Of a stretch of DNA of 64,000 nucleotides, positions 4,802 to 53,737 are shown piece after piece. Source of the stretch: Candidatus Babeliales bacterium (GTDB lineage Bacteria > Babelota > Babeliae > Babelales > JANWKD01); assembly GCA_963701665.1 (NCBI GenBank), contig OY969622.1:704001-768000 (forward strand). The letters run 5' to 3'. Made by a program: the position numbers and the translations under genes. The notes beneath the pieces are model-generated. The model had not been told where the DNA came from. It made no database searches and saw only the letters and a program-made list of their open reading frames with translations. Numbering within the stretch: the stretch's first letter is position 1; every line of letters begins with the position of its first letter.

Positions 4802-4891
4802 ATGTCTTTTGACCTAAAATCATGTTTTCAACTGCAAATGATGCATCAAAAATCTATCCCTATTTTCTCTTCCTTTATTATTGTGCGCTAA
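4802..4891 (+). CDS. Putative Ile-sensing leader peptide of ileS (MSFDLKSCFQLQMMHQKSIPIFSSFIIVR)
   Basis: AAGGA SD; all 4 Ile codons within the last 11 codons; stop codon in loop of 11-bp hairpin. Confidence 0.6.
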   Translation: MSFDLKSCFQLQMMHQKSIPIFSSFIIVR

Positions 4892-4922
4892 GCACAATAA
4901 TATTCTCTTTTTCATTTTTTTA
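4876..4922 (+). terminator. Attenuator-like hairpin plus U-rich tract in ileS leader
   Basis: TATTATTGTGC-gctaa-GCACAATAATA followed by TTCTCTTTTTCATTTTTTT. Confidence 0.6.
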
Positions 4923-4991
4923 TACAATTTCTGATATTCTTATAGTTCTTCTTACTTGAACTTATTGCGAATTATACGCTAAGGAAAAAAA

Positions 4992-7925
4992 ATGGCTGAA
5001 AAAAACACTGAGCAAGAAACGGGTGCCGTAAATTTTAAAGATACCTTAAATTTGCCTCGCACTGATTTTCCTATTCGTCCTGATGCCAAGCATGATGATA
5101 AAGCATTGCTTGAGCGTTGGGAACGAGAAAATCTTTTTTTTAAATCATTTATGCAGAACGAGGGAGCACAAAAATTTATTCTCCATGATGGTCCCCCCTA
5201 TGCCAATGGCAATATTCATTTAGGGACCGCCTATAATAAAATTATCAAAGATATTATTGGCAAATCGCAGCGCATGAAAGGTATGCACGCACCAATTACG
5301 CCTGGATGGGATTGCCATGGATTGCCGATCGAATTAAAAGTTACTAAAGAATTTTCTGAGTTGAAAGCGCAAGATTTAAAAAAAGCATGTCGTGAGTACG
5401 CAAAAAAATGGATTGATATACAAAAGGCTCAATTTAAAGGGCTTGGCGTTCTCATGGATTGGGATCGGCCGTATTTGACCATGAATTATGGCTACGAAGC
5501 ATCAGTGTTACGAGCTTTTGCAGATCTTGTGCAAAAGGGATATATCGAAAAAAAGAAAAAAACCGTGGCTTGGTGTTTTAATGATCAAACAGTACTTGCA
5601 TCTGCTGAAATTGATTATAAAGAACGTAAGGATCCTTCAATCTATGTTGCTTTTCGGCTTGCCTCGGATGCTGTTGCGCAATTAGTGCCATCGCTTAAAA
5701 ATAAACCAGTCAACCTACTAGTGTGGACAACAACACCATGGACATTGCCGCTCAATCGTGCGGTGCTTGTCAAACCAGAAACAGAATATAGCGTATTAGA
5801 AATCAATGATCACTATTATTGTGTTGCTTGCGCGCGCGCTGAAGCTGTATGCACGCTTTTGAATGTCCCTAAAAAAGTTGTGGCGACTATTAATTCCGCG
5901 GATTTTGTTAATGCGCGCGTGCATCATCCATTTATTGATGATTTGATGGTGCCTGTGTTGCTTGATAATTCTGTTTCAACGGACGATGGTACAGCCGTAG
6001 TGCATTGTGCGCCAGGGTGTGGGCCCATCGATTATGATGTTGCGCTTAAAAATAACCTTGAAATATTTTCACCAATTAGCCCTGATGGCAAATACACGCT
6101 TGGCATTGAACCGGCTGAATTAGTTGGTATGCCGGTAATGGACGGGCAAATTTGGGTGCTCAAAAAATTGACCGAAAAAAATGCACTCGTTTATAAAACC
6201 TCAATTCGGCACTCGTATCCTCATTGTTGGCGATGTGGCGAGGGGCTCATCTTCCGCGCGACTAACCAGTGGTTTTGTGATTTAGAACATGACAATTTAA
6301 AAGAACGCTCGCTCGATGCGATTGAAAAAATTACGTTCTTACCACCAAAAGCAATTAACTATTTAAAAGCAACGGTTGGCGGGCGTTTGGAATGGTGCCT
6401 TTCTCGCCAGCGCGTGTGGGGTGTGCCAATTCCCGCGTTATTGTGCAAACATTGTGATTATGTATATACAAATGTTGATTTGATACGCGCGGTTGCTGAT
6501 GGTGTTGAGCAACATGGCATTGAATATTGGGATACCGTTTCGCTCCATGACCTTGGTCATAAGCTTGATCATTGTCCGAACTGTAGCTCGCCAGATATAG
6601 TTAAAGAAAAAGATATTCTTGATGTGTGGTTTGATTCGGGTGTAAGCCATTATGCGGTGCTTGAACAAAATCCCCATTTAGCATTTCCTGCCGACATGTA
6701 TTGTGAAGGGGTTGATCAACATCGTGGTTGGTTTCAAAGTTCACTATTAACCAGTATGGTTATAGAAAATAAAGCCTGCACAAAAGCATTTTTGACGCAC
6801 GGATTCATTGTTGATGAGCGTGGACAAAAGATGTCCAAATCGTTAGGCAATGTTGTACTGCCAGAAGAGATTATTGAACAACTTGGCGTTGACGGTTTGC
6901 GCTTATGGGCTTCAAGTATTGATTATGGTGGTGATATTGTGGTGTCAAAAGTTGTACTCCAGAATGTTGCGCAAGTATACCGTAAAATCCGCAACACCTG
7001 CAGATTCTTACTTTCAAACTTGTATGACTTTTCCTATGAAAATGATGCACTTTCAGTGCATGAGCTTTCAGTGCTCGATCTTTTTGCATTGCAGGAATTG
7101 CATGAAGTTAATGCCGCGATTTTAGAAAAATATGCTGTCCATGATTTTACGGCGGTGTTTCATATGCTCAATGATTATTGTTCGGTGAACTTGAGTGCTC
7201 TGTATCTTGATGTGCTTAAAGATCGCTTGTATACGGAAAAAGCCCATGGTAAAGAACGTCGCGGTGCGCAAACATTGTGTTGGTTAATTTTAGATTCAAT
7301 TACCAAGGCCATGGCGCCAATTTTGTCATTTACGGCGGAACATGTTTCAGATTTTTATCAAAAAGATAAAGAGAGCTCAATCCATTTACAAAATTTTAAT
7401 AACGTGCCATCAAGTTGGTTGTTGCTTCTAGAAGAAAGTAAAAAAGAACAATCATCATCAATTCCATTACATTATCAGCCTTTTGCACAAAAAATTCAGC
7501 AAAAAGGACATGAGCTTGAACTACTTGCCATGCGCAAAAAGCAATGGGAATTTTTGCTCTCGATTCGATCAGCGCTGTTAAAAGCTATTGAACTACAGCG
7601 AGAGAAGGGACTTATCAAACACTCGTTAGAAGCTCATTTGCGCGTTTATTGTAATTTTAGTGATGAACAAAAAGAATTATTTAATGATTTTGTGAAATTG
7701 CTTGGAAAAAAGAATCAAACGCTTGAAGCTTTCTTGAAAGAATTTCTCATTGTTTCTCAAGTTACGATAGAACAACATGATCAAGGATTGATGTCATCTG
7801 AAATGCCAGGGCTTTCAGTGCTCGTTGAACATGCAAAAGGGAAGAAATGCCCTCGCTGCTGGAACTGGGATGAACACTATGATGCTGATGGTTTGTGCCA
7901 ACGGTGCCAACGAGTATTGAAGTAA
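4992..7925 (+). CDS. ileS: Isoleucine--tRNA ligase (bacterial type 1)
   Basis: LHDGPPYANG, PGWDCHGLPIE, WTTTPWTLP, DQHRGWF, KMSKS, C-terminal CPRC..CQRC zinc finger. Confidence 0.97.
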   Translation: MAEKNTEQETGAVNFKDTLNLPRTDFPIRPDAKHDDKALLERWERENLFFKSFMQNEGAQKFILHDGPPYANGNIHLGTAYNKIIKDIIGKSQRMKGMHAPITPGWDCHGLPIELKVTKEFSELKAQDLKKACREYAKKWIDIQKAQFKGLGVLMDWDRPYLTMNYGYEASVLRAFADLVQKGYIEKKKKTVAWCFNDQTVLASAEIDYKERKDPSIYVAFRLASDAVAQLVPSLKNKPVNLLVWTTTPWTLPLNRAVLVKPETEYSVLEINDHYYCVACARAEAVCTLLNVPKKVVATINSADFVNARVHHPFIDDLMVPVLLDNSVSTDDGTAVVHCAPGCGPIDYDVALKNNLEIFSPISPDGKYTLGIEPAELVGMPVMDGQIWVLKKLTEKNALVYKTSIRHSYPHCWRCGEGLIFRATNQWFCDLEHDNLKERSLDAIEKITFLPPKAINYLKATVGGRLEWCLSRQRVWGVPIPALLCKHCDYVYTNVDLIRAVADGVEQHGIEYWDTVSLHDLGHKLDHCPNCSSPDIVKEKDILDVWFDSGVSHYAVLEQNPHLAFPADMYCEGVDQHRGWFQSSLLTSMVIENKACTKAFLTHGFIVDERGQKMSKSLGNVVLPEEIIEQLGVDGLRLWASSIDYGGDIVVSKVVLQNVAQVYRKIRNTCRFLLSNLYDFSYENDALSVHELSVLDLFALQELHEVNAAILEKYAVHDFTAVFHMLNDYCSVNLSALYLDVLKDRLYTEKAHGKERRGAQTLCWLILDSITKAMAPILSFTAEHVSDFYQKDKESSIHLQNFNNVPSSWLLLLEESKKEQSSSIPLHYQPFAQKIQQKGHELELLAMRKKQWEFLLSIRSALLKAIELQREKGLIKHSLEAHLRVYCNFSDEQKELFNDFVKLLGKKNQTLEAFLKEFLIVSQVTIEQHDQGLMSSEMPGLSVLVEHAKGKKCPRCWNWDEHYDADGLCQRCQRVLK

Positions 7926-7931
7926 ATTGAT

Positions 7932-8165
7932 TTACTTGTGAGTCTTGGAGCCATTCTTTTTTTGTTCTTCCAAGTAACACAATGCGCGGAAATGATTTTG
8001 TTGAAAGGTACAAACATTAGGTGGTCTTAAAGGATGTGGTTGTACATATTGTTCTGAATTTTCTTTCATTTGCTCACGTGTCGGTTCATGTTCTTCCTGC
8101 ATGCATGCAAGGAAAGATACATTACAACAAATAGTGAGTACTGCTACAGAATAAAAGAAATTCAT
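7932..8165 (-). CDS. Small exported hypothetical protein
   Basis: AAGGGG SD before MNFFYS; signal-like segment ending LAC-MQEE. Confidence 0.5.
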   Translation of the reverse strand: MNFFYSVAVLTICCNVSFLACMQEEHEPTREQMKENSEQYVQPHPLRPPNVCTFQQNHFRALCYLEEQKKNGSKTHK

Positions 8166-8237
8166 ATGATCCCCTTTGTAATTATTTTGGTACAAAATAC
8201 TACAAAGGGGATTTATATTGTAAGAGTATGGTATTAT

Positions 8238-10280
8238 TTAATCTTCTGCTTTTTCTGTAGGTGCTTTATACGTATCTTTGAGCTGTTTAATGGCATTAGT
8301 GCGTACTGAAATTTTCTTAGGCAACCCTGTTATTGGATCAATTTCTTTCGTTTCTTCTTCTTTCAAAGGATTAATTTGATTTAATTTTGCTGCTTCAAGA
8401 TCAGTAGAATCATTGAGATTGAGGCCAGCCTGAGTACCCGGTAAAAAGTCTCCAGTGAGCGCAAAAACAGCAACAGGATCAAGCGGTTGAATTCCAGCAT
8501 CAACTTTTGGTTGCAATTGTTTTGTTGCATCAAATTTAAGTACTGGCTCGATGAGCTCATACGCTGTTAATTCTTGAGGCTTTTCAGGATCACGTTTCTT
8601 TTTTTCAAAATCTTTAAATTCTTGTACAACTGCTTTTTTATACGCAGCAAGATCAGCTTTGTTATCTTTAAATTCTTTTTTGAAAGCATCTCTCATTATT
8701 TTATTTGGAATATCGGTAAGAATGTTTGTTATCTTAACGATTGCTGCTTTGGTATCACTAATTTTCTTTAATGCTTCTTCAGAATATGGTTTTGCTACTG
8801 GCGTTGTCATAAGCTCTTTGAACTTCCACCCAAAAAGATCTTTATTGTCAGTAATTTCACTGCTGAAATCTTTGAGCTTTCGCTTAATGATACCAACTTG
8901 TTCAGAAACTTTTGATGATAGTTCTGCTTGTGCTTTTTTGTCGCCTGCCTTGGTTGTTTCTTCCCCTTTCTTTTTTTCCTCTTCTTTTTTCTTTTTTTTG
9001 TCTTTCTTTTTCTTCTTCTTCTCTTCTTTAGCTTTTTTTTCTCCAGCAGAACCTTCGCCACCACGAGGTTTGATGCCGGCAGATGCGGGTGGTGCGAGTG
9101 GTGCATTAGCATTAAAACTTTCATAAGGTGCTGGGAAACCGAACTCTCCGCCGGGAAGCGGGGGTTCATAGCCACCGAGTGGTGGTTGAGGCGGTGGCAT
9201 AGAAAATACCATGCGACCTGGGAGCGCGCGTTTTTTAAGTGCTTCTTCTTGTGCTTTACGCGCTTCAGCTTCTAATTTTTCGCGCTCTTGTTGTGCTTTC
9301 AATGCTTCAGGGTCATGTTTTTTGAATAATTTTTTTATATCTTCAAGGATTATGCGTTCATCAGTTGCTTTTGACAAAGCATAAAGAATTTGATCAAAAA
9401 TATATCGTGATTCTTCTTGATTACGTATTTCTGCATATGAGCCATTGATAAGCGTAAATTTATTTTTTGCTTCGCTAAGTGCTTTATCAATTTCGTCTTT
9501 GGTTTTTCCTTGCCGAATAAGCTTGACTTCAAGTAATTGTGGATTGGTGTCTGCAACGAGTTTTTGATACGATGTTACAATTTCATCTTGTGTAGCAGTG
9601 CGTGCAACATTGAGAACTTCGTAAGGATTTTTCCCTTCGAGACTGAATTCTTCAATGGTCAGCTGAGGTTCAAGAGAGCTTAAGCTTGTATGTAATTCTT
9701 TCAGATTCGTTAATAATGGCTCAAATTCTTTATCTGAAAGAAATTTTATGAGCTTTTCACTCGTGAGCAAGTTTAAATAATAAACTAAATCATCTAAACG
9801 ATATTTAAAGGGGATGAGATCGTTAGAAAAATCTTTATTATTTGCAGCCTTTTGGCGAATATCACCAATTAAACGAATAAGATCTTTTAACATTTGAACA
9901 TGAGAAAGATCAACAACAGGGGCTTTTTTTTCTGGTTCGGCTGGTTTTGTAGGTGCGGGTTTCTCCGGAGCTGCAGCAGCTTCTTTTTCAAAATCTTCTT
10001 GCAGCTGAGCTTGAAGTTCAATGTAGTCAAATGGGTCTATGCCAAGTTCATCGGCTTCTTTAATAATTTCTTCGCCGATAGCAGTAAGTGCATCGATGGT
10101 TTCCTGATCCAAGCTTGAGATAAAATCTTCAAACATTTTCATATCTTGTTCAGATAGTTCGGGCATGCCAGCAGGAGGTGCAGCAACAGGGGGTTTTGAA
10201 GGTCCTGCTGATGCATATATCGTACTATATGAAGCACTTATCAAAGAAAGAAAAAGAAAAATAATTGATTTGATTTTCAT
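8238..10280 (-). CDS. Large exported protein with degenerate J-like domain, Pro-rich and Lys-rich tracts
   Basis: Signal peptide; NPYEVLNV...EI..SYQKL...NPQ (HPD absent)...KF..IN.SY. Confidence 0.7.
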   Translation of the reverse strand: MKIKSIIFLFLSLISASYSTIYASAGPSKPPVAAPPAGMPELSEQDMKMFEDFISSLDQETIDALTAIGEEIIKEADELGIDPFDYIELQAQLQEDFEKEAAAAPEKPAPTKPAEPEKKAPVVDLSHVQMLKDLIRLIGDIRQKAANNKDFSNDLIPFKYRLDDLVYYLNLLTSEKLIKFLSDKEFEPLLTNLKELHTSLSSLEPQLTIEEFSLEGKNPYEVLNVARTATQDEIVTSYQKLVADTNPQLLEVKLIRQGKTKDEIDKALSEAKNKFTLINGSYAEIRNQEESRYIFDQILYALSKATDERIILEDIKKLFKKHDPEALKAQQEREKLEAEARKAQEEALKKRALPGRMVFSMPPPQPPLGGYEPPLPGGEFGFPAPYESFNANAPLAPPASAGIKPRGGEGSAGEKKAKEEKKKKKKDKKKKKEEEKKKGEETTKAGDKKAQAELSSKVSEQVGIIKRKLKDFSSEITDNKDLFGWKFKELMTTPVAKPYSEEALKKISDTKAAIVKITNILTDIPNKIMRDAFKKEFKDNKADLAAYKKAVVQEFKDFEKKKRDPEKPQELTAYELIEPVLKFDATKQLQPKVDAGIQPLDPVAVFALTGDFLPGTQAGLNLNDSTDLEAAKLNQINPLKEEETKEIDPITGLPKKISVRTNAIKQLKDTYKAPTEKAED

Positions 10281-10353
10281 AAAATTCTCATACTGTGTAA
10301 TGTACTATTAGTACAAAGAAAAACATGTACCTTCAGATGATGATTTTAGTGGT

Positions 10354-10752
10354 ATGGCTATGCGAAGTCAATTAAAGCGCTCATTACAAAGATCTGGTTT
10401 TATGATTATTGAATTACTAGTAACCATTTTAATTCTCTCAGTTTTTACTTTTATTATTGCTTGTTATCAGAGCATGAGCATTAGAGCAAGTTATGAAGCG
10501 ATCGAGCGATGGAAAGCGGTCAATGCCGTACATACATTTTTGGTTAAAGCATCATGCGATCGTTCATTATTAACCAAAACAACTATACAAGAAGATTCAT
10601 ACAATATTACGTGCGCTCGATTATCATTAGCACTCGAGGGGCCTGCTCAATTTACCAATGCCAAGAAACATTCTTTCTATGAGGTTGCTGCTTCATGGAA
10701 AGGATATCACAAACAATGTACGTACTCATGCGTTGCTGGAGTCATGTCATGA
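10354..10752 (+). CDS. Prepilin-type N-terminal cleavage/methylation protein (minor pilin/pseudopilin)
   Basis: G|FMIIELLV type IV pilin motif plus hydrophobic helix. Confidence 0.75.
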   Translation: MAMRSQLKRSLQRSGFMIIELLVTILILSVFTFIIACYQSMSIRASYEAIERWKAVNAVHTFLVKASCDRSLLTKTTIQEDSYNITCARLSLALEGPAQFTNAKKHSFYEVAASWKGYHKQCTYSCVAGVMS

Positions 10753-11279
10753 AAAGTAAGAGCGACGGTTTTTTGATGATTGAATTTTTGGTCTACTTTT
10801 TTTTGGGGACGTGTCTATCCTACTGCGTTGTTCATTTTATCGTTGCATCATCACTTCATATGTGCCGAGAACATAAAAAAATAGGGGCAATTACTGAATT
10901 GCTTACAGCACTGGATTATTGTGGCTACACGCTTGAAAATGCTCCATGCGATAAAAAACTTTGGAAAAAAATGGAGCCTAAGCTTCTCATATGGCATGAT
11001 GCGCACGATACTATTGATATTGGATTACGTTTGGCACACGATAAATTAGTACGGATTAAAGGAACCTATTCATTATTTAAAAAATCGTGGATCTCAAAAA
11101 AGAAAGCGATACTTGCTCGAAATATCAAGGATGTTGAGTTTACGTGGTATGAAGATTCTGTCGCTTCTAAAAAAAATATTCGCTATATTTCTTGTCAATT
11201 AAAAAGGGTGTTGCCTGATAAAGATGATGATTATTCAGTATGCAAATCCGTCGCATTAGAAAATAGAATTTTAGTATGA
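10749..11279 (+). CDS. Prepilin-like protein (start MKSKSDG, ATGA overlap)
   Basis: G|FLMIEF motif; translational coupling. Confidence 0.7.
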   Translation: MKSKSDGFLMIEFLVYFFLGTCLSYCVVHFIVASSLHMCREHKKIGAITELLTALDYCGYTLENAPCDKKLWKKMEPKLLIWHDAHDTIDIGLRLAHDKLVRIKGTYSLFKKSWISKKKAILARNIKDVEFTWYEDSVASKKNIRYISCQLKRVLPDKDDDYSVCKSVALENRILV

Positions 11280-11737
11280 AGCTACATAATGAAGGATCGA
11301 TGTTACTGACTTTTTTTCTCGTGCTAAGCTCGTTGACCCTCGCATGTTCAATTGTATGGCTTGCTGCTACCTTATTTTTTGATGCAGCCATACAAAAACA
11401 AAATTATGAGTCGTCATACCAACAAACGGCGGGTATGCTCAAGTATGGTATTTCATTATGTACCCATAATTTTGATAACGTACGTACTTATTTAAAAAAT
11501 AACAAAGTTCTTACGTTGAGTGGGCCATTCGACACCATGAGCAAAAAAAATTACCGTGCAACAATGCGTATGACCTTGCGTGATGAACAATGCGTACTAC
11601 TCAATGCCCGTGTGCACGACCATGAAAAGACCATTTTTGAAAGTTCTTGTGAATTAATTAAGTCTGTAGAGTCGACATCGAATGATAAAGTATCAGAATA
11701 TTTTGCTATAAACGCATGGAAAAAAAACAGTTCTTGA
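11276..11737 (+). CDS. PilX/GspK/ComGG-like minor pilin
   Basis: G|SMLLT lacking Glu5, third gene of coupled pilin cluster. Confidence 0.55.
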   Translation: MKLHNEGSMLLTFFLVLSSLTLACSIVWLAATLFFDAAIQKQNYESSYQQTAGMLKYGISLCTHNFDNVRTYLKNNKVLTLSGPFDTMSKKNYRATMRMTLRDEQCVLLNARVHDHEKTIFESSCELIKSVESTSNDKVSEYFAINAWKKNSS

Positions 11738-11768
11738 TGTTTGAGTAAAATGGTTTCTTCTAGGAAAA

Positions 11769-13845: not shown

Positions 13846-13855
13846 AGTTCGCTCT

Positions 13856-23199: not shown

Positions 23200-23250
23200 A
23201 TGAAAATCAATACTATATTCTTAACCTCTCCTCATTATATTCCCGCATAG
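23200..23250 (+). CDS. Possible Pro-containing leader peptide of putP (MKINTIFLTSPHYIPA)
   Basis: Two Pro codons in last six; stop overlaps weak hairpin; SD weak. Confidence 0.35.
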   Translation: MKINTIFLTSPHYIPA

Positions 23251-23312
23251 GGTATAAATTTACTATTTTTCACTAGAGATGAGTTACTTGGTTAAAGAAT
23301 TAAAGGATTTTC

Positions 23313-24746
23313 ATGTATATTCAATTTATCATTTCATTTGCCGTTTATCTGACTATTGTTTTAGCAATAGGCCTTGTTGCTGCACGCGCTGCTGCTAGCA
23401 AAAATAAACACTCGCCTGACTTTTTATTGGGTGGACGCTCGACTCACTGGTTTTTAACCGCGCTTTCAGCGCACGCTGCTGACATGAGCGATTGGCTTTT
23501 TATGGGGTTACCTGCCGCAATATATCTTCAAGGCGGTTATCAAATATGGATTCCTATCGGATTATTAGTAGGTATGTTTTGCGTGTGGCACTTTATTGCA
23601 AAGCGATTACGCATTTCCTCAGCCTACTATCGAGGCGTCACTCTCGCTTCCTATTTTCAAGAACGATTTAACGATAGATCAGGTATTATAATTGTCATAT
23701 GTGCCTTAATTTCATGTTTCTTTTTTTCTATCTATCTTTCCGTAGGATTAAAAGGAATTGGGTATGTATTAAAATCAGCATTTAACCTTGATTATCATCT
23801 TGGTACGTTGTTTGCTGTGCTGGTTGTTTTGACGTATACCGTTCTAGGTGGGTTTATCTCCGTTGCATGGATTGATCTCTTTCAAGGAATTTTTTTATTA
23901 ATAATGCTTATGATTGTACCTATTGTCGGTTTTTTTTCTGTAGGCGGCTTTTCAGCAATTTTCAATGCTGCACAGCAAAAAGCGATTTCATTATCCCTTA
24001 TTCCTGATTTTTCATTGCATACAATGCTCTCAATTCTTTTGAACCCTTTTGCATGGTGTCTGGGCTATTTTGGCATGCCGCATGTATTAACAAAGTTCAT
24101 GGGCACTGAAAATGCAGAGGATCTTCATAAAGCAAAATATGTTGGCATAACATGGCAACTATTAGCAACATCCGCTGCTGTAGGTGTCGGGTTAGTTGGT
24201 ATCGCATATTTTATGCAGGGCGTACCTGGCAAACCAGAATTCATTTTCATTGAAATGACAAAGCAGTTATTTAATCCATGGTTTGCTGGCATTGTATTGT
24301 GCGCAATTTTGGCAGCAACTATTTCTACCGTGGATTCACAACTTTTAGTACTCGCCAGCATTATTGCCCACGATTTTTATAAAAATATTTTTTGCAAACG
24401 CGCGACTCAAAAACAGGTTATGTGGGTCTACCGCGCGTCATTAATTGTTACCGCGTGTATAGGCTATGCAATCGCGTGGGATGAACATAGCACCATCATG
24501 TCATTAGTGAAATATGCCTGGTCTGGCCTTGGCGCCTCGTTCGGACCCCTTATGATTCTTTCACTCTATTCAACGAGTATTAATAAATACGGTGCCATTG
24601 CAGGCATTCTTGCAGGCGCTTTTGTGGCTGCAACATGGGATTTGATAAATCCTTATGTTACGAGCATGCCTGTTTACTCAATCGTTCCAGGGTTTATTAT
24701 AGGTCTCATAACTATTTATACCGTGTCATTGGCAACAAAAGAGTAA
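23313..24746 (+). CDS. putP: Sodium/proline symporter
   Basis: LGGR, ALSAHAADMSDWLFMGLP, LGYFGMPH, LAATISTVDSQLL, AWSGLGASFGP. Confidence 0.9.
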   Translation: MYIQFIISFAVYLTIVLAIGLVAARAAASKNKHSPDFLLGGRSTHWFLTALSAHAADMSDWLFMGLPAAIYLQGGYQIWIPIGLLVGMFCVWHFIAKRLRISSAYYRGVTLASYFQERFNDRSGIIIVICALISCFFFSIYLSVGLKGIGYVLKSAFNLDYHLGTLFAVLVVLTYTVLGGFISVAWIDLFQGIFLLIMLMIVPIVGFFSVGGFSAIFNAAQQKAISLSLIPDFSLHTMLSILLNPFAWCLGYFGMPHVLTKFMGTENAEDLHKAKYVGITWQLLATSAAVGVGLVGIAYFMQGVPGKPEFIFIEMTKQLFNPWFAGIVLCAILAATISTVDSQLLVLASIIAHDFYKNIFCKRATQKQVMWVYRASLIVTACIGYAIAWDEHSTIMSLVKYAWSGLGASFGPLMILSLYSTSINKYGAIAGILAGAFVAATWDLINPYVTSMPVYSIVPGFIIGLITIYTVSLATKE

Positions 24747-24866
24747 ATTCTTAGCCCACAACACAAAAATATAGGTTGACACTCTTTTGCTTTATTTTAT
24801 AATAGTAAATATATAGCAACTGCTAGTATGGGTATATTGTGGTATAAAATTAGGGGACAATTCTAT

Positions 24867-25841
24867 ATGAAAATAGGTAAATTTCTAATGCTTTCTGTTG
24901 CCTTTCTCTCTTTTTTAAGCTGTTTTGGCATGCAAGAAAAAAAAGAAATAACCGTTCCGGGAATTTCTAAAAATATATCTTGCATGAAGGCTACTGATTA
25001 TTTTAGTTCAAAAAGGAGCAGCTCAAGGGCTTTAGATCTTATAGAAAAGAAATCATATTGGGATAAGCTGCAAGATGCCGCTGTATCGTCTATGGGATTT
25101 GGCGTACTTCTTGCAGGAATATATGCTATTGCCATTCCATTAGAACGAAGACATCTTATATCATTTGAACAGCTTAAACATACTGATGGAGATCTTGCCA
25201 AACATATCGAAAAAGTTGCTAAGGCAGTTAATATTGATCCATCTTGCATAGAATATAATCTTTCTGGTAGAGAATTTGCTGCCGTGAGTCCAACAATTTA
25301 TCCTAAAATTTTGAATCTTGACCCTGCAGGACTTAAAAAGATAACCAATGACATGGCGTCATTTTGTATCGCGCACGAGTTAATACATATTAAAAAATAT
25401 CATATCGCTAAAAATCTTATATTTTGCTTGATGGCGCCGGTTACGGATTTACATCTTGAACTTGCAGGTAAATACTATTCAAAATTTGTTGACCGATCTA
25501 TATTTTCTCTTCAAAAAAAATTTGGTTATGAAAATAATTGGTTAATCAATCACTTTCGCAGTTTTCATAATTCAGTTGCAACTTCACAAATTACCCATTT
25601 CTTAATTCAAGCTTATATATGGAAAAAAATGATGACATCTTTTGAAAAAGAAGCGGATATTGAAGCGGCGATAGCATTAAAAAGCGCCAAAGGTGGAATG
25701 GATTTATTTGCTTCAATAGTACGTACCCCTTCAAACTTTTTTATGGGATTCTATAATAAATTTATTGACCCTCACCCTGCAAATTACGATAGATATATGT
25801 ATCTACTTCGACTTCAAAAACAATTCGATGTACAAAAATAA
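24867..25841 (+). CDS. Exported M48-like zinc metalloprotease
   Basis: Signal peptide CFG-MQE; IAHELIH, EKEAD, HP...R. Confidence 0.75.
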   Translation: MKIGKFLMLSVAFLSFLSCFGMQEKKEITVPGISKNISCMKATDYFSSKRSSSRALDLIEKKSYWDKLQDAAVSSMGFGVLLAGIYAIAIPLERRHLISFEQLKHTDGDLAKHIEKVAKAVNIDPSCIEYNLSGREFAAVSPTIYPKILNLDPAGLKKITNDMASFCIAHELIHIKKYHIAKNLIFCLMAPVTDLHLELAGKYYSKFVDRSIFSLQKKFGYENNWLINHFRSFHNSVATSQITHFLIQAYIWKKMMTSFEKEADIEAAIALKSAKGGMDLFASIVRTPSNFFMGFYNKFIDPHPANYDRYMYLLRLQKQFDVQK

Positions 25842-44297: not shown

Positions 44298-44328
44298 CGA
44301 CCTTTTTGTTTTTTTTATAAAAAGAATG

Positions 44329-45580: not shown

Positions 45581-45606
45581 GATAAAAGCTCAACAAACAG
45601 AGCGAT

Positions 45607-45637: not shown

Positions 45638-45777
45638 AACTTTAATTAATCCTTATAGAACAAAACATGACATAAGGGGAGAATTATGCGACGTAATAGG
45701 CTTGCCCTGCAGTCATCTGGCGCCCCCTCCCCTAAGAAAGTTGAGTCACTTACACTAATATATTCTTACAAAAAAAA

Positions 45778-45808
45778 TTGACATTTCCTCATAAAGAGAT
45801 TATATAAT
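45778..45808 (+). promoter_or_regulatory. Sigma70-like promoter of dnaK
   Basis: TTGACA-17-TATATA(AT). Confidence 0.6.
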
Positions 45809-45864
45809 CTTAAGTGAAAATGCTTTTGAAATCGAACGAATATCAACTTATAAAAGGATATAAA

Positions 45865-47745
45865 ATGGGAAAAATTATAGGAATAGATTTAGGAACAACC
45901 AACTCTGTCGTAGCATTCATGGAAGGCGGAAAGCCTAAAGTAATACCAAGCAGTGAAGGTTCAAATATTATACCATCTGTCGTAGCTTTTACAAAAGACG
46001 GCAAAAGGCTCGTAGGAACCTTGGCAAAACGACAAGCGATAACCAACCCAGAGAATACTATTTACTCAGCAAAGAGATTTATTGGCCGCAAATACGATGA
46101 AATGCGTGATGAGTTCAAGAATATCCCCTACAAAGTAATCAAAAGATCAAATGGCGACATTGGCATCATGGCACAAGGCAAAGAATATACGCCAGAAGAA
46201 ATAGCAGCGTCAGTGCTAAGTCTTATCAAGCAAACGGCTGAAGAATATCTTGGGCAAAAAGTAACAGAAGCGGTAATCACTGTACCTGCTTATTTTAATG
46301 ACTCACAAAGACAAGCAACAAAAGATGCAGGTAGAATTGCTGGCTTGGATGTTAAAAGAATCATCAACGAGCCAACAGCTGCTGCACTCGCCTATGGTGA
46401 AGATAAGAAAAAGAATGGAACGGTGGCCGTATTTGACTTTGGTGGTGGCACCTTTGATATTTCAGTTTTAGAAATTAATGACGGTGTTATTGAAGTTAAA
46501 TCAACCAATGGCGACACACACTTAGGTGGTGATGACATTGATCAACGCCTGATTAACTATCTGGTTGAAGAATTTAAAAAAGAGCAAGGCATCGATTTAA
46601 GAAATGATAAGCTTGCTTTGCAACGACTCAAAGAAGCTGCAGAAAAAGCAAAGATCGAGCTTTCTACCGTAGCAGAAACAGAAATCAATCTTCCTTACAT
46701 TACTGCTGATGCATCAGGCCCAAAACATCTTAATATAAAAATCACACGAGCAAAATTAGAATCACTGTGCTCAGACTTGTTCACACGTTTACTTGAGCCA
46801 TGCAAAAAAGCAATCGCTGATGCAAAAATATCACGCGATGCAATCGACGAAGTAATTTTGGTTGGTGGTTCAACACGTATGCCAAAAGTACAACAATTAG
46901 TAAAAGAATTTTTTGGCAAAGAGCCGAACAAATCAGTTAACCCAGATGAAGTTGTTGCATTAGGTGCGGCAATACAAGGTGGCGTACTCGCAGGCGAAGT
47001 CACCGATGTGCTGCTACTAGACGTTACTCCCCTCTCATTGGGTATTGAAACACTCGGCGGCGTTTCAACAAAATTAATTGAACGCAATACAACGATCCCA
47101 ACAAAAAAATCACAAGTCTTCTCTACCGCTGAAGATAATCAAACAGCAGTGGACATTCGAGTGGTACAAGGCGAACGCGAATTAGCAAAAGATAATAAAT
47201 TCCTTGGTCAATTCAGACTCGATGGAATTCCAACAGCCCCACGCGGCGTACCGCAAATTGAAGTAACTTTTGACATCGATGCAAATGGTATTGTGCATGT
47301 TTCTGCAAAAGACAAAGCAACAAACAAGGAACAAAAAATCACTATCACAAGCAGCAGTGGATTAAGCAAAGAAGAAATCGAAAAGATGGTGCAAGATGCT
47401 AAATCCCATGAAGCGCAAGACAAAAAGACACGCGAAGCAATCGATAAGAAAAACCGTCTTGATGGATTAGTGCTGGATATCGAGAAAACACTCAAAGAAA
47501 ATAAAGAAAAATTGAGTGAAGATGATATCACAAAAACAGAAGATGCTCTTGCAAAAGCTCGTACAGCATTAACAGAACACGCGCAAGATCCTGAAGCATT
47601 GCAAAAAGCAACTGATGATCTTATTCAAGCATCGCACAAAGTAGCCGAACTGCTTTATAAACAAACACAAGAAGCAGGTAAACATCCTGAAGAAAAAGAG
47701 ATTGAGCCTGAAAACCAAGGTCCAATCGATACTGACATCAGCTAA
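45865..47745 (+). CDS. dnaK: Chaperone DnaK (start [12 protein letters not shown] at 45865)
   Basis: [32 protein letters not shown]. Confidence 0.98.
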
Positions 47746-47874
47746 TTAATAATATGGTAGGGAGAAGAGCAGCAACATTAACCGCTCTCTCCTGCCACAC
47801 CAGCTTTCGCTAAAATTACAGCTCGCGACCAGTTCTTTAAATGAATTTGAACTTTTAAGGTATGGGATAAAATA

Positions 47875-48414
47875 TTGGATAGATTTACATTAATACAAAT
47901 GTTACAGAACTATTTTCCAGTTTCAGAAGAAGAAATCAAATTCAAGAAGGAAATGATTAATTTTATCAAGAAAAATCCTGACTGCTTTGAGAGATCCTTA
48001 GAAATTGGGCATATCACCGCATCATCATGGTTGCTCAACAAAGATCACTCAAGAGCCCTTCTCATGCATCATACAAAATTAGATAAATGGTTCCAGCTTG
48101 GAGGACATTGCGATGGAAATCCTGATGTTTTAGCTGTAGCAATTAAAGAAGCTCAAGAAGAATCTGGTATCAAAGGAATAGCCCCTGTGTATAAAGAAAT
48201 TTTTGATATTGATATTCACCTCATACCCGGAAATACGCGGGAAAAAGAACATTATCATTATGATGTTAGATTTTTATTACAAGTTACCAGTGATGAACAA
48301 ATAGTACAAAATCGTGAATCAAAGGAATTGCGGTGGATAGAGAAAAAATTGACCTCATTACCAACACAGGATCCATCAGTAATTCGCATGTTCAATAAAT
48401 GGATAAATAATTAA
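47875..48414 (+). CDS. NUDIX hydrolase
   Basis: GHITAS, W.QLGGHCDG...AIKEAQEESG, HYDVRF. Confidence 0.88.
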   Translation: MDRFTLIQMLQNYFPVSEEEIKFKKEMINFIKKNPDCFERSLEIGHITASSWLLNKDHSRALLMHHTKLDKWFQLGGHCDGNPDVLAVAIKEAQEESGIKGIAPVYKEIFDIDIHLIPGNTREKEHYHYDVRFLLQVTSDEQIVQNRESKELRWIEKKLTSLPTQDPSVIRMFNKWINN

Positions 48415-48456
48415 CACTTAATATATTTTTAAAATTCTTATGGGGGAATCAATATT

Positions 48457-48576
48457 ATGAATACTAAACAACTTATCTTTTTTTGCTCGTTCATTACTAA
48501 CCCACTATGTGACGCTCACATACAACCGAGTATTTCGAGATTCATAGCCGGTAATGCTTTGATCAGCAAGCTTTAA
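48457..48576 (+). CDS. Possible 39-aa ORF or gene remnant (MNTKQLIFFCSFITNPL...)
   Basis: GGGGA SD-like sequence upstream; lies ahead of OPT transporter. Confidence 0.25.
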   Translation: MNTKQLIFFCSFITNPLCDAHIQPSISRFIAGNALISKL

Positions 48577-48697
48577 ATTCAATTCCTAAACTATCTTTAA
48601 GGCAATTCAATTTTGCGATAGAGAAGTTTTGATACTATGCTATCCTCACAGGATATACAAACTTATTATACAAAACTCGCTGTAATGAGGTACGCAC

Positions 48698-50305
48698 ATG
48701 ACATCACTTCTCATAACACTCTTTCTCACCTTTATTTTTTCTTGTCTTTCAACGGCAATCTTAAGTTACATCTCAATGGCAGTCATGCTTGGGCCTTGGA
48801 TTGATTCGACCATTGTCCTTGCTTCAAGTATGATTCTTGCGCTTTTTGCACAAAAAATATCGCTTTCTAGCCGACAAAATTCAATCGCATTGATAACTAT
48901 TGGCGGCTCAGTTGGCGGTATTGTGGCCACCGCATGCGGATTTGCATTTCCAACACTCTATTTTTTAGACAAAGAACTTTTTAATTCTTGGCTTTCACAA
49001 CCACTCTATTTTGTTGTGATAATGGGCATTTTGGTTGCATGTGCCGGCGCATTTGGTTTATTACTTGCTAATCTTTTTGAACATCATTTTATAGCCATCG
49101 AACAACTCCCCTTTCCTATCGGTGAACTCTCCTACAAAATGATTTCTGCGCAAGAAAGTAGCAAAAAATCACGCGAACTTTCTTTTGGATTTATAGTGAG
49201 CGCGTTATATAGTATCGCAGTCAAATATATTCCAGGCATTCCAAGAATGATTACTGCATTGCCTGCGTTTCATTATCGCTGGTTCAATCTACCGACACTA
49301 AAAATTTCCCTTCTTGAACTTCCTATGCTCTGGGCAATTGGATTCATCGCAGGGCACACCATCGCAATTCCCCTTGGTATTGGCATTTTGGCAAAGAACC
49401 TCATTTGTGGACCGGCACATCTTGCCTGTTTTACACATCTTCCTTTTGGCGATTTTTTAGTCGCTTTTGCAGGTGGCATGGTGGCATATGGGGCTCTTAT
49501 AAGTTTTTTAACGCTGCCTTCTGCATTTAAAGGTTCCAAAAGAAAACAAAAAACCAATACTGTAACATTAAAACAAATCGCATCGCTCGTATCAATCAAA
49601 GATAGGGTTCAATGGCTCATTTTTCTCATCTGTACAGGAATATTTTTACATTATTTCAACTTTAGCATTATCTCTCAGCTTTATTTGCTTATCACCATAA
49701 TCGCTTGTACCTATCAATTAATTATTATTGGGGGAAAAATGGGAATTGCACCATTTCCGCGGTATGCAACATTTGTTATGATTCCTGGCATAATGCTTTT
49801 TGGCTATGACGCCATACAAATTACATTAGTCTCTACGTTTGTTGAAATTTGCGGAGGCGTTGCTGTTGAAATATTATTTGGTCGTAAAGTTGCCCAGTTA
49901 AGTGAGCTGCCATCACACAAGGTACGATTATTTCAATGGTTAGGATTGGCAATAAGCGCTTTAGCAATTGGCATTTGTTTTTGGATTTTAATTACGAATC
50001 TTGGTCTTGGATCAGCACAGCTCATTGCACAACGCAGTCAAAATCGCGCATTATTAGTTATGGTACAATCATTTGATTTTTTCGCACTTATCTTAGGAGC
50101 ATTATTTGCTTCCATTCTTAAAGAATTGAAAATTAATGCAATCATGGTACTTGGTGGCATTTTAATGCCTACAGAGTTAGCATTACCATTAGTATTTGGC
50201 GGTCTATCAAGCTTGGCGGTTAAGAACAACGAATCCCAGTATCCATTTTGGTCAGGTATTTTTGCCGCCAATTCACTCTGGATGTTCATTAAAATATTGT
50301 TGTAA
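48698..50305 (+). CDS. OPT/YSL-family oligopeptide transporter-like membrane protein
   Basis: Highly hydrophobic; FPTL, E.LPFP.G motifs. Confidence 0.7.
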   Translation: MTSLLITLFLTFIFSCLSTAILSYISMAVMLGPWIDSTIVLASSMILALFAQKISLSSRQNSIALITIGGSVGGIVATACGFAFPTLYFLDKELFNSWLSQPLYFVVIMGILVACAGAFGLLLANLFEHHFIAIEQLPFPIGELSYKMISAQESSKKSRELSFGFIVSALYSIAVKYIPGIPRMITALPAFHYRWFNLPTLKISLLELPMLWAIGFIAGHTIAIPLGIGILAKNLICGPAHLACFTHLPFGDFLVAFAGGMVAYGALISFLTLPSAFKGSKRKQKTNTVTLKQIASLVSIKDRVQWLIFLICTGIFLHYFNFSIISQLYLLITIIACTYQLIIIGGKMGIAPFPRYATFVMIPGIMLFGYDAIQITLVSTFVEICGGVAVEILFGRKVAQLSELPSHKVRLFQWLGLAISALAIGICFWILITNLGLGSAQLIAQRSQNRALLVMVQSFDFFALILGALFASILKELKINAIMVLGGILMPTELALPLVFGGLSSLAVKNNESQYPFWSGIFAANSLWMFIKILL

Positions 50306-50407
50306 TTCTATGATAAGATATATTTTTATTATTCTATTGTTCTCCTTATTGACTAAAAAAATATTATGATTATTACTGTCATTAAAAATTCAAACTTAAG
50401 GAGAAAC

Positions 50408-50920
50408 ATGTACAAAAATACATCACTAATTTTATTATTTTGCCTAACAACATTAAAACTAGGTTGCGCAAATACAGAATTAATTATTAGTAATGCAATG
50501 TCATTCAATATGAACTCTATTGTCGACCGTTACAAAAAAGAATTCCAAGTTACTGATGAAGTTGCAAAAGAACATGAAAGAGAACTTAAACGCTATTTAG
50601 CTTTATGCGCAATATATCCTGAACAAAACTTTCATATGTTTAGCAACAGCGTAGACAATTTATGGCATACTTTTTTAATTTTTACAAAAGATTATAAGAA
50701 TTTCTGTAAAAATGTTGCAGGAAAATTTTTACATCATGTTCCAATCGAAAATAAATCAGAAGAAGATGTTTCTGCTAAAAATAAATTCATAGATAAATAT
50801 TCTTCTACTTTTAATGAAAAACCTTCTACTACTATCTGGTCGACATTAGAAAGTTCCAACGGAGCTGACTGCAATCCGGATTATTGCTCAAATTGTCAAT
50901 CGGGTTGTTTAGTTAGATAA
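50408..50920 (+). CDS. Glycine-rich-domain-like (DUF1399-like) protein with Cys-rich tail
   Basis: E.KRYL.L, VD.LWH.F...TK.Y..FC....G.FLHH.P; tail CNPDYCSNCQSGC. Confidence 0.7.
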   Translation: MYKNTSLILLFCLTTLKLGCANTELIISNAMSFNMNSIVDRYKKEFQVTDEVAKEHERELKRYLALCAIYPEQNFHMFSNSVDNLWHTFLIFTKDYKNFCKNVAGKFLHHVPIENKSEEDVSAKNKFIDKYSSTFNEKPSTTIWSTLESSNGADCNPDYCSNCQSGCLVR

Positions 50921-50938
50921 TACAAAATCTAAAAATGA

Positions 50939-50978
50939 TAAGAAAAAGAGCTGGAAAAATTTCCAGCTCTTTTTCTTA
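50939..50978. terminator. Bidirectional terminator
   Basis: TAAGAAAAAGAGCTGGAA / TTCCAGCTCTTTTTCTTA perfect inverted repeat. Confidence 0.85.
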
Positions 50979-50993
50979 TATATACAATTCTTA

Positions 50994-51548
50994 TTAATTT
51001 TTTTCATATTGACGCGCAACACGGCGAACATTATCAGGAATAATGAGTGAATCAAGAACATGAATAACACCATTGCTCGCAGGAATATCAACCGCAACAA
51101 CTTTTGACTTTGTAACACTCGGTGTTACAAAAAGTGATCCTGAACCATCTATTTGTAGATAGATTGGTGTGTTCAGGGTTTGAATAGCGTTGAGCTCACG
51201 TAAATTAAATGAAGGAATATTTCCTTGAATAAGGTGCATACTCACCAAAAGTTTTACGCGAATTCTATCTTGAGCAATAGAGTCTAAAAAATTAGGTGAA
51301 ACCTTTCTGAACGCATACCATGCCGGCACTAAAACAGTAACTTGACCCATCTCTTGCAACGTCTTGACCATATCAGCTTTTTGAACAAGCTGAAAAAATT
51401 CAGGAAAATCTTTTTCAAGAATAGTTACGATGTTTGGATTACTTTTGCCTAAACGCTCGGCAGGCATAACAAAATCATCAGGAAAAGCGTTGAGCAACGA
51501 GAAACAAAGACATTGTACCAGCAACAATTTTTCAACTGATATTTTCAT
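50994..51548 (-). CDS. Fasciclin (FAS1) domain protein
   Basis: TVLVP...AF, H.I.G, DIPASNGVIHVLDSLIIP. Confidence 0.88.
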   Translation of the reverse strand: MKISVEKLLLVQCLCFSLLNAFPDDFVMPAERLGKSNPNIVTILEKDFPEFFQLVQKADMVKTLQEMGQVTVLVPAWYAFRKVSPNFLDSIAQDRIRVKLLVSMHLIQGNIPSFNLRELNAIQTLNTPIYLQIDGSGSLFVTPSVTKSKVVAVDIPASNGVIHVLDSLIIPDNVRRVARQYEKN

Positions 51549-51628
51549 GACTCCCCTATTTGAAATAGCAATGTTCATTATTATTGATGATACATAACAT
51601 CAACTCAAATAGGCAATATTTTGATATT

Positions 51629-52537
51629 TTAGGCCTTTTCTGCCGTTATCATATATCCTTGTTTTAATTCTTCATGGTAAAAAATATATAATCCAATACA
51701 GACAACAATGAGTGACATAAAAAAGCTTATACTCACGCGCTCGCCTAAAAATAACCATCCAAATAATGCCGCAAAAAATGGTGTCGTAAATCCCGCAAAT
51801 GCAAGGAATGTCGCGGTATAACGCTTGAGTAAATAGCCATAAAAATTATAAAAAACAATATTAGCAAGAAGAATAATAAGCGCTGTTAGCCGAACAAACG
51901 GCCAAAAATCAGTCACCGGAGAAACCGTCCACCCTTCAATGCAGTAGGAAGTAAGAAGTGCTAATATACCGCCACCAACCATACCAATACCATTCACCAT
52001 GATTGGCGAATATTCCCCATCTTTTACTAATTTACGCATAGTCACCCAACCATATACCGCTGATCCCACAGCAAAAAGCATAATAAATTCTGGTAACATA
52101 GTCGCTGAAGAAAAAGAAGTCATATCTATATTGGCAATAATCTCAGGCGCAAAACCACAAAAGCCAATACCAAGCCCCAACCATTTTTTTAGCGTCATTT
52201 TTTCAGAAAAACAGAAATATGAAAATAAAGCTGCTAAAAATGGAGAGAAATTGTAAAGAAAGGATGATTTAAAAGAAGTTAGATATTGTAATGACCATAA
52301 ATCTAAGATATACGCGAAATAGACGTGAAAAAGAATAATCTGGAAAAACAATAAACGATCTTTCTTATGTATAAAAAACGTACGTTTATCTTGAAAATAC
52401 GAGTAACCGAGCAAAAGCATGCCCGCAACAAGCATGCGTACGCCAACCAAAAAAAGCGGTTTCACATATGCCAACAAGGCTTTACAAATGGTGAAAGTAC
52501 TAGCACACACAGCATACAATGCAATAATAGAAAACAT
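51629..52537 (-). CDS. DMT/EamA family transporter
   Basis: ~10 TM; shares WSLQY.S, EKMT.KK, LFGW.FLGE, YHEE with 34301 paralog. Confidence 0.85.
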   Translation of the reverse strand: MFSIIALYAVCASTFTICKALLAYVKPLFLVGVRMLVAGMLLLGYSYFQDKRTFFIHKKDRLLFFQIILFHVYFAYILDLWSLQYLTSFKSSFLYNFSPFLAALFSYFCFSEKMTLKKWLGLGIGFCGFAPEIIANIDMTSFSSATMLPEFIMLFAVGSAVYGWVTMRKLVKDGEYSPIMVNGIGMVGGGILALLTSYCIEGWTVSPVTDFWPFVRLTALIILLANIVFYNFYGYLLKRYTATFLAFAGFTTPFFAALFGWLFLGERVSISFFMSLIVVCIGLYIFYHEELKQGYMITAEKA

Positions 52538-52756
52538 AGAAGACCCTTTTTCTTAAAAGTCATTTGAACTTGAGGCAAGATAAAGTTATCGTGCCCCATA
52601 AATAATTTAATCAATCGCCCTTAGATTGCAAATGCATAGGCTCAAACATCAGCACTAATCCGCGCTGATCAGCCCTCCAACTTTTTTATCAATTTCTTCA
52701 AGATCATAAAACTGTAAAAATTTTTTAATATCCATAATATCCTTTAAAAAAGCCTA

Positions 52757-53527
52757 TTAAACAGTAACAACAATCTCTTGCCCAGGGAATGCTTGCAAAT
52801 AATCTCTCGCGCAACCTTGGTTAACCGCAATTTCAAGCGTTTCATTGCTCCCTTTATAGCACAGCAATTTTCCTGGCTGCACATTATCAAATGTAGTCAC
52901 AAAAAGCGCCTCAAAAGATTTTTCCTCTATCTTGAGGCATATCACTTTATTAAACCATGCAGCATCAGCTGGTATATTAGTTTTAATATTCCCAAAACTA
53001 TCGATATAGGTAATAATTTTTTGTGTTTCGAGAATATCACAATATTTAATATCTTTTTTATCAATCGGCAAAAGAGCATCACAATTGCCTTGAGCCAACC
53101 GAATTGCAATTGGTGCAAAAATATCTCTGCCATGGAATGTATTAGATTTTTCTGGGAAACAGAATTCGTTAATTTTAAAAACCGTTACACCCTCTTGCTT
53201 CAAAATATAATGAAACAAGCCATTATTGGGCCCAATAAAAGTATACGAGCCAAGTTTTACCACCAAACCACTCCGTTCAGTACCAACTCCTGGATCAACA
53301 ACCGCAATAATATAACTATTTTCTGGAAAATAGGCGTATATCTTTTCAAGCACAAATGCACCACTCACAACAGAAAACTTTTCTATAGAATGATCAATAT
53401 CGATAACTGAACTGTCAGGAATCGCACGCAATAAGGTTGCTTTTATTGTAGCAACGGCAAAGTCAAACCCAAAATCAGTCAATAGGCCAAAAGTAATATT
53501 CGTATTTTTTGAAGATAATAAATTCAT
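52757..53527 (-). CDS. SAM hydroxide adenosyltransferase / chlorinase-fluorinase family (DUF62)
   Basis: LLTDFG, VVDPGVGTER, GPNNG, SNTFHGRDIFAP, YIDSFGNIKTNI, LEIAVNQG. Confidence 0.92.
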   Translation of the reverse strand: MNLLSSKNTNITFGLLTDFGFDFAVATIKATLLRAIPDSSVIDIDHSIEKFSVVSGAFVLEKIYAYFPENSYIIAVVDPGVGTERSGLVVKLGSYTFIGPNNGLFHYILKQEGVTVFKINEFCFPEKSNTFHGRDIFAPIAIRLAQGNCDALLPIDKKDIKYCDILETQKIITYIDSFGNIKTNIPADAAWFNKVICLKIEEKSFEALFVTTFDNVQPGKLLCYKGSNETLEIAVNQGCARDYLQAFPGQEIVVTV

Positions 53528-53628
53528 AATCAAACCTCTCTCATTAAAATAAATGAAATAAAAGCATAACAAAAGCACATACCCTAAAAAGGGTTTAGCT
53601 TATAAAAAAAATAAGGGTAAAAAGAAAG

Positions 53629-53652
53629 ATATATGGCCTTAGGCCATCATAT
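53629..53652 (-). terminator. Attenuator-like hairpin with leader stop codon as loop
   Basis: ATATgATGGCC-TAA-GGCCATATAT then CTTTCTTTTT on minus strand. Confidence 0.55.
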
Positions 53653-53737
53653 AAAGAAGAGAGTATGACATAGCCATAAATGCCAAAAACAAAATTTTGC
53701 TTGTCTGAAGAGAACAGAAAATAATGTTAGGATTCAT
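53639..53737 (-). CDS. Putative Met-sensing leader peptide (MNPNIIFCSLQTSKILFLAFMAMSYSLLYMMA)
   Basis: GAGG SD; 4 internal Met codons in last 12; upstream TTGACA-17-TAAACT promoter. Confidence 0.6.
   Translation of the reverse strand: MNPNIIFCSLQTSKILFLAFMAMSYSLLYMMA

Follow-up and report, generated by a model that had tools for sequence, protein, structure and literature searches.

The window analysed here is a stretch of 64,000 nt (positions 704,001 to 768,000 of contig OY969622.1, assembly GCA_963701665.1) from the genome of a Candidatus Babeliales bacterium, a member of the Dependentiae (Babeliae), assembled as a single contig of 1.34 Mb with 37% GC. In this window, ileS, a putP-like gene and a DUF62 gene are each preceded by a short open reading frame (ORF), hereafter called the leader, that ends in codons for isoleucine, proline and methionine, respectively. 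These ORFs had been pointed out in a sequence-only reading of the window, and their coordinates and translations agree with it. The Ile leader (4802-4891, forward strand) has 29 codons and encodes a 29-residue peptide (...IPIFSSFIIVR*) with Ile at positions -3, -4, -9 and -11. Upstream of it, 9 of 12 positions match the sigma70-like promoter consensus (4725-4752, forward strand; a consensus match only). The end of the ORF lies in an 11-bp hairpin (4876-4902, forward strand) that carries the TAA in its loop and is followed by a U/C-rich tract with 6 U in 8 nt. Then comes ileS (4992-7925, forward strand), encoding an isoleucine-tRNA ligase that scores above the curated cut-off for IleRS. On the reverse strand, the Met leader (53639-53737; 32 codons, 32 residues, ...MAMSYSLLYMMA*) possesses a Shine-Dalgarno (SD) sequence, Met codons at -2, -3, -10 and -12, and an upstream sigma70-like promoter (TTGACA-17-TAAACT, 53778-53806, 10/12 positions). 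Its stop codon occupies the loop of a hairpin with a covarying stem, ATGGCC-TAA-GGCCAT (53633-53647). Still on the reverse strand, there follow a poorly structured, G-poor and U/C-rich tract (53595-53632), a candidate pause and Rho utilization (rut) sequence, the gene for DUF62, an S-adenosylmethionine (SAM) hydroxide adenosyltransferase (SAM_HAT, SAM hydrolase family; 52757-53527), and a gene for an EamA-family transporter (51629-52537), a candidate SAM or methionine importer. EamA comes after DUF62 in most loci. The two stop-in-loop hairpins noticed earlier are both real local folds: the ileS hairpin has a stability of -13.3 kcal/mol (z -8.2 against shuffles) and the DUF62 hairpin (53647-53633) reaches z -2.35 for an 81-nt window.

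The Pro leader (23200-23250, forward strand; 16 codons, 16 residues, ...SPHYIPA*) has Pro at -2 and -6 and precedes the gene for a putP-like sodium/proline symporter (23313-24746, forward strand; best match 452 bits, under the curated cut-off of 515.5). A Pro codon opens its hairpin (23242-23252, forward strand), a weak CCC/GGG stem of only 3 G-C pairs whose stability is no better than that of shuffles (z -0.25). The same 11 nt are present in the same-genus genome G001, and longer C/G stems occur at putP in G055, G014 and G048. The putP leaders mostly open the stem with CCC (23242-23244 in the window); one tRNA-Pro only (TGG) was detected by ARAGORN in the source genome, so that CCC would need wobble reading and may be slow. 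An Rfam search covering the T-box, the SAM riboswitch and known leaders gave no match in the window and none in 10 leader loci, in line with the earlier impression that no T-box is involved.

The family extends beyond the window. A stop-in-loop scan of the source genome, of the kind suggested by the sequence-only reading, retrieved three more leaders: a Thr leader (...QTTA*) preceding thrS, an Ile/Val leader (...VSSITA*) preceding a gene for a BrnQ-family carrier, and a Leu-rich leader preceding a 294-aa gene that is itself located 5' of leuS. A blind rule, in which amino-acid identity is ignored, was applied to the 635 genes of this genome having enough intergenic room. Thirteen genes match, versus 3.2 expected from shuffles, with a rule that was fixed after examples were known. 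These 13 matches comprise 5 cognate leaders, 1 repeat-derived ORF and 7 apparently unrelated cases; the window putP leader fails the rule. Over the loci compared, the same rule retrieves 8/11 DUF62 loci, 7/30 brnQ, 3/51 thrS, 3/30 putP, 1/30 ileS and 1/24 SDF carrier loci, whereas 0 to 0.4 are expected per gene class from shuffles. The last five codons of the 23 blind matches contain 48 cognate codons, against a mean of 18.7 and a maximum of 42 in 100,000 label permutations.

Conservation is strongest for the methionine class. DUF62 is present in 5/61 genomes, and 6 further loci from GTDB bring the number to 11. Nine of these 11 loci have a leader of 25-45 codons whose Met-Ala/Gly-stop end lies within a hairpin. 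In G042, DUF62 is preceded by a tandem pair of Met leaders separated by about 200 nt (L179:1400-1530 and L066:1130-1300). Searches starting from the motif alone gave out-of-sample support. Among 201 genomes (50 of the 61 matches listed were fetched), two new Met leaders were found before DUF62, together with two short-ORF matches ahead of unrelated genes. In metagenomes, 64 motif matches were obtained, 9 of which have a 10-60-codon ORF and a pyrimidine tail; six of the nine precede DUF62 (in 4 cases immediately, in 1 with a short gene in between) or EamA (1 case), and the other three are GC-rich and unrelated. In total, these searches added 8 Met leaders before DUF62 or EamA. The leader located directly 5' of EamA has no DUF62 beside it, which suggests that import may be the main target. 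For the other classes, the best 30 loci were fetched per search, plus 21 extra for thrS. Curated leaders precede putP in 8/30 loci, brnQ in 11/30, thrS in 6/51 (one via an SDF-thrS operon, one weak), ileS in 2/30 and leuS in 1/30; one more precedes an SDF carrier gene. These Thr, Pro, Ile/branched-chain and Leu leaders are found in 10 families, as labelled by the search tool. No leader lies directly upstream of the 29 ileS orthologs; in G001, an Ile-rich counterpart becomes visible beyond a gene inserted in front of ileS. A generic GCC-stop-GGC pattern mostly hit coding sequence; three more leaders came out of the 51 matches examined (one Thr leader each from G001 and G033, and the second Met leader of G042). 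Conservation, named as a check in the sequence-only reading, is found for the Met leaders and is patchy elsewhere.

The anatomy of the leaders was compared over 39 curated cases (38 when one member of the tandem pair is dropped), a set partly selected on cognate codons. The layout consists of a promoter-like site, a short ORF usually with an SD sequence, the cognate codons, a short GC-rich hairpin, a G-poor U/C-rich tract and, after a spacer of 50-160 nt, the gene. A promoter score of at least 15 is reached upstream of the leader in 26/38 cases and next to the gene in 3/38, as compared to 48/114 next to the gene for leaderless orthologs. Cognate codons peak at -2 (22/39) and -3 (23/39), with a second peak near -10/-11. 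The X-x-X spacing described earlier is exact, as M-x-M, in 6 of the 18 Met leaders; what generalizes is a further Met codon upstream, at a distance of 4-14 codons from the stop, in 18/18, methionine accounting for 1.9% of the proteome. Apart from the cognate codons, a terminal Ala (last residue in 19/39) and a Met-Cys pair, the peptides diverge and no conserved arrest peptide is seen. The Met-Cys pair, often Ala-Met-Cys, is found 5-15 codons before the stop in 12/39 curated leaders; Cys follows 11 of the 37 internal Met codons of the 18 Met leaders. The loci concerned are Met leaders L063-L067, L141-L144, L382, L392, L403 and L411 and brnQ leaders L147-L152. The pair may reflect additional sensing of cysteine, a motif in the RNA or an effect of the peptide.

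A stem is found in 37/39 leaders, and its 5' arm usually begins at or beside the last cognate codon. The stop codon is in the loop in 25 leaders, or 28/39 if three in which a stronger upstream stem was picked first are counted. The stop lies outside the loop in the remaining 11/39; among these, several brnQ and putP leaders have the stem 4-16 codons before the stop, mostly still opened by a cognate codon. In brnQ leaders L151, L152 and L155 (G032, G002 and G008), the hairpin is opened by a Met codon, which suggests that the corresponding carriers also supply methionine. The 3' arm tracks the codon, as illustrated by ATGGCC/GGCCAT, ACTGCC/GGCAGT, ATGGGC/GCCCGT and GTGGC/GCCAC. The stop served as the anchor for counting covariation, because differences between the loops put the MAFFT alignment of the hairpins out of register. 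In 23/39 leaders, the stem halves fold at -8.7 with their own partner versus -3.7 when halves are exchanged between classes. Since the 3' arm changes together with the cognate codon, the pairing itself is under selection. The sequence-only reading had named conserved cognate codons, stem covariation and an excess over shuffles as checks; all three are found, and it is very probable that the leaders are sensors of their cognate amino acid.

Besides the hairpin, the leader ends share a compositional bias. Around the stop, C exceeds G in 37/38 leaders (mean C-G 0.083 versus 0.002 in controls). The excess also holds in the Met class and, 3' of the stop, in 5/6 classes. The 50 nt located 3' of the hairpin are weakly structured (median -2.2 for 25 leaders, versus -4.4), and a U-rich window begins at a median of 14 nt past the stop. 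The bias does not correspond to a fixed motif: the shared stretch TCTCTTC..TTTAT proposed earlier has 6-7 matches genome-wide and is replaced in orthologs by variable C/U-rich sequence. The RNA-binding domain of Rho is encoded in 60/61 genomes. Stalled ribosomes that mask a rut site at the stop of an upstream ORF are described for tnaC, speFL and cruR (PMC12360218). Pause hairpins lie 11-12 nt from the RNA 3' end (PMC12288461) and the footprint of a ribosome reaches about 12 nt beyond the codon being read (PMC4833913).

Because the C-rich stretch and Rho are present while readings based on a terminator at the stop, on a downstream terminator or on SD sequestration find little support (see below), Rho-dependent attenuation is favoured. 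This possibility, advanced as a secondary idea in the sequence-only reading, fits the data best. We infer each step of the following scheme, for which the balance is about even. The hairpin and the U-rich tract would hold RNA polymerase at a pause site some 20 nt beyond the stop; the pause would end once the leader ribosome has caught up and opened the stem. With plentiful charged tRNA, the ribosome would terminate two codons later and depart, thereby exposing the C-rich, G-poor leader RNA, and Rho would terminate transcription in the spacer. With the amino acid in short supply, the ribosome would remain parked in the middle of the C-rich stretch, Rho loading would be prevented, and the synthetase, importer or SAM-salvage genes would be expressed. 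A broader claim, to be held more tentatively, is that of a single portable minimal attenuator, made of a hungry codon, a covarying pause hairpin opened by this codon, and Rho, whose versions for Met, Thr, Ile/Val, Leu and Pro would adjust importers, SAM salvage and synthetases to what the host supplies. One of these versions, reading methionine codons, would make the import and hydrolysis of SAM depend on how far Met-tRNA is charged in organisms lacking MetK.

Several observations weigh against this reading. The Thr, Pro, Ile/branched-chain and Leu leaders occur in a minority of relatives. Use is patchy within the source genome as well, where 15 further synthetase genes have no leader directly upstream: none was seen in the 330 nt preceding valS, metG, cysS, tyrS, trpS, gltX, proS, hisS, glyS, serS, aspS and lysS (cysS, tyrS, trpS and gltX being assigned from motifs alone), nor directly upstream of pheS, argS and alaS, in a check from which leaders ahead of upstream operon genes could escape. 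As the blind rule was set post hoc and the genomes are related, the enrichment shows non-randomness and not an exact probability. In two of the 39 leaders, a search up to 45 nt from the stop yields no stem. Farther than about 30 nt from the stop, the C content has returned to background; the codons themselves account for part of the C excess in Thr and Pro leaders, and 3' of the stop the one Leu leader contains less C than G. With spacers of 100-160 nt, some RNA stays free behind the stalled ribosome, and Rho is so nearly universal that its presence does not discriminate. Finally, NusG apparently carries TT at the positions of the pausing residues N81/T82 of B. subtilis, as judged from a by-eye alignment on the motif; the pause residues are ambiguous.

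The alternative that survives best, although unlikely, is that the stop hairpin is a weak intrinsic terminator, helped by NusA, NusG or Rho and blocked by the stalled ribosome. B. subtilis possesses suboptimal terminators at which NusA and NusG assist (PMC12288461). The sequence-only reading had regarded the stop hairpins as terminators. In favour of this, both the ileS hairpin (11 bp, 6 U in 8) and the DUF62 hairpin of the window pass a permissive terminator scan, and 12/37 leader stems have at least 5 U in the next 8 nt. As a general rule the idea is unlikely. The same U-tract criterion is satisfied by 45 of 75 gene-end hairpins of the source genome, a set pre-filtered for strong stems, whose median stability is -17.3 kcal/mol versus -7.1 for the leaders. 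The U window is displaced from the leader stem by a median of 4 nt, versus 0 in 42/58 gene-end hairpins; several leader stems are trailed by A runs, and the 11 leaders with a stop outside the loop do not conform. Moreover, the stem would be covered whether the ribosome stands on the last cognate codon or has reached the stop, so that the simple model would have no OFF state. Given a footprint of about 12 nt and a U window starting 14 nt past the stop, the ribosome of a fed cell would still sit on the stem while the polymerase crosses the tract. As a separate observation on gene ends, 8 of 45 U-tailed terminators in G000 start at most 12 nt from the stop codon, which bears on transcription-translation coupling in this lineage.

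Control of mRNA stability seems less probable still. After ribosome release, an endonuclease would cut the single-stranded A/U-rich tract next to the hairpin, and a stalled ribosome would protect it. A short stem beside an unstructured A/U-rich tract is a typical endonuclease target, and such a stem does adjoin such a tract here. However, the C excess is explained less directly by this mechanism than by Rho loading, and the cut site would fall partly outside the ribosome footprint. Translational attenuation, in which the pyrimidine-rich leader pairs with the downstream SD sequence unless covered by a stalled ribosome, is rather improbable. It can invoke the mycobacterial polycysteine small ORFs, which share the layout with cognate codons near the stop (bioRxiv 10.1101/834739), and single cases of 7-8 bp complementarity seen by eye (G004). 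Yet duplexes between leaders and their own ribosome-binding site (RBS) are not better than those with other RBSs (P 0.12-0.86), and in the models, adding a stalled ribosome moves RBS accessibility from 0.41 to 0.42, with 1/38 gaining more than 0.15.

A classical attenuator is very improbable. The leader of the enteric trp attenuator has its stop between segments 1 and 2; by analogy, the stop hairpin would be the 1:2 pause stem, with a 3:4 terminator and an antiterminator downstream. Weak second hairpins do occur in 7/38 spacers, one of them in the window at 53594-53581, but they are not conserved, and a hairpin of -6 kcal/mol or better followed by a U-tract exists in a single, borderline case out of 38. 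No competing antiterminator is evident, there being no terminator to compete with, in the absence of a dedicated search for alternative folds. The sequence-only reading had likewise seen no terminator-antiterminator pair; overall, its interpretation is partly supported. That the ORFs are due to chance or incidental to a conserved RNA hairpin, as their patchy occurrence, the marginal putP hairpin of the window and the divergent peptides might suggest, is just as improbable, since frame, start, SD sequence and cognate codons are preserved across families and codon identity changes with the downstream gene.

Attenuation by Rho at the end of a leader ORF can be compared with several known systems. 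As in tnaC, speFL and cruR, a ribosome held at the end of the leader ORF would mask an adjacent rut site with no need for a terminator/antiterminator pair, and cruR has the same polarity, nutrient scarcity leading to stalling and to expression of an importer (PMC12360218). The C-rich, poorly structured leader end and the presence of Rho are shared with this type. However, stalling in these systems depends on a conserved nascent peptide together with a free ligand, at the stop codon or close to it (PMC12360218), whereas the Dependentiae peptides are unconserved beyond the cognate codons, which points to stalling by uncharged tRNA, and the same layout is used for at least five amino acids. The nearest published proposal concerns the Cys leaders of Actinobacteria, for which Rho control was put forward in 2005 (PMC1262725). 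The leaders of Mycobacterium cys, P. acnes cys and B. longum cbs resemble the present case in having their cognate codons close to the stop, a pyrimidine-rich spacer and no terminator hairpin (PMC1262725; bioRxiv 10.1101/834739), and several loci likewise make up a 'ribulon'. These Cys leaders differ in being leaderless and restricted to Cys, with no conserved hairpin reported. The tested case works by SD sequestration (bioRxiv 10.1101/834739), which is unsupported in Dependentiae. Salmonella mgtL/mgtA shares Pro codons, a Rho-dependent outcome and polymerase pausing (PMC8346122, PMC12360218), but mgtA requires large alternative RNA folds and reports Mg2+, whereas the sole conserved structure here is one stem of 3-7 bp.

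The classical trp, his, thr, ilv, leu and pheST systems share with the Dependentiae elements a 5' untranslated region that harbours a leader ORF with cognate codons, and the control of synthetase and amino-acid genes. In classical attenuators, too, a hairpin overlapping the ORF end can pause the polymerase. Here, no intrinsic terminator is found beyond the ribosome footprint (apart from the borderline spacer), and the targets are importers, salvage enzymes and synthetases of an auxotroph, methionine included. The element would work like ribosome-sensing attenuation while having neither the terminator of the classical systems, nor the arrest peptide of tnaC, nor the pairing of the mycobacterial case. 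In the literature searched, which left subscription papers and supplements outside, nothing was found on such a leader element or on attenuation in Dependentiae or any other regulation at the RNA level in this group, nor on any bacterial leader-peptide attenuator for Met; the main text of PMC4776705 contains no occurrence of attenuat, leader or riboswitch.

Dependentiae lack complete amino-acid pathways and are thought to import amino acids (PMC4776705). The leaders are likely to switch the matching genes on when the amino acid supplied by the host runs short. The SAM synthetase family (metK) was not found in any of the 5 genomes searched (93-97% complete), which makes EamA a plausible importer of SAM or Met. 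EamA-type import of SAM exists in Rickettsia, and hydrolysis of SAM by DUF62 releases methionine. Enzymes of the DUF62 family hydrolyse (R)-SAM, with a salvage role (bioRxiv 10.1101/2025.08.29.672840). If the scheme is true, reduced intracellular parasites could gauge the nutrients of their host in the absence of regulatory proteins, by means of a regulon that covers several amino acids and costs about 60 nt per locus. Rho-dependent attenuation, described for arrest peptides that bind a ligand, would then also respond to simple starvation at a codon, and methionine would join the amino acids that leader peptides can read. Transporter substrates would in turn be predicted by the leader codon: Thr for the SDF carrier, Met or SAM for EamA, and Met plus Ile/Val for some BrnQ carriers.

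Some candidates were rejected. The ORF preceding an APC permease gene proved to be repeat-derived, and the Trp/Tyr permease family was not found in any of 5 genomes searched. A dispersed palindromic intergenic repeat occurs in many copies, upstream of aspS (L054), valS (L129), the APC permease (L305) and elsewhere in G000, and its copies generate false short ORF-hairpin matches. Triple matches in G096 correspond to a repeated element that precedes each of three consecutive tRNA genes, the latter being read on the opposite strand (L359:400-1000), and a Met-rich ORF of G004 is antisense to a gene. Also in G004, a brnQ leader (L150) is split by an apparent frameshift and lysS (L062) contains stops, possibly assembly errors. 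A second repeat of about 250 nt forms an inverted pair in G000 at about 29.5-30.5 kb (L140), with another copy before trpS (L134). Finally, similar-looking genes of 290-340 aa seem to insert into leader, synthetase and putP operons: they are found in G000 between the leader and leuS (L248:2160-3044), in G001 before ileS (L002) and in the window right after putP (24828-25841), and two G000 proteins of this group have weak Peptidase_M48 matches.

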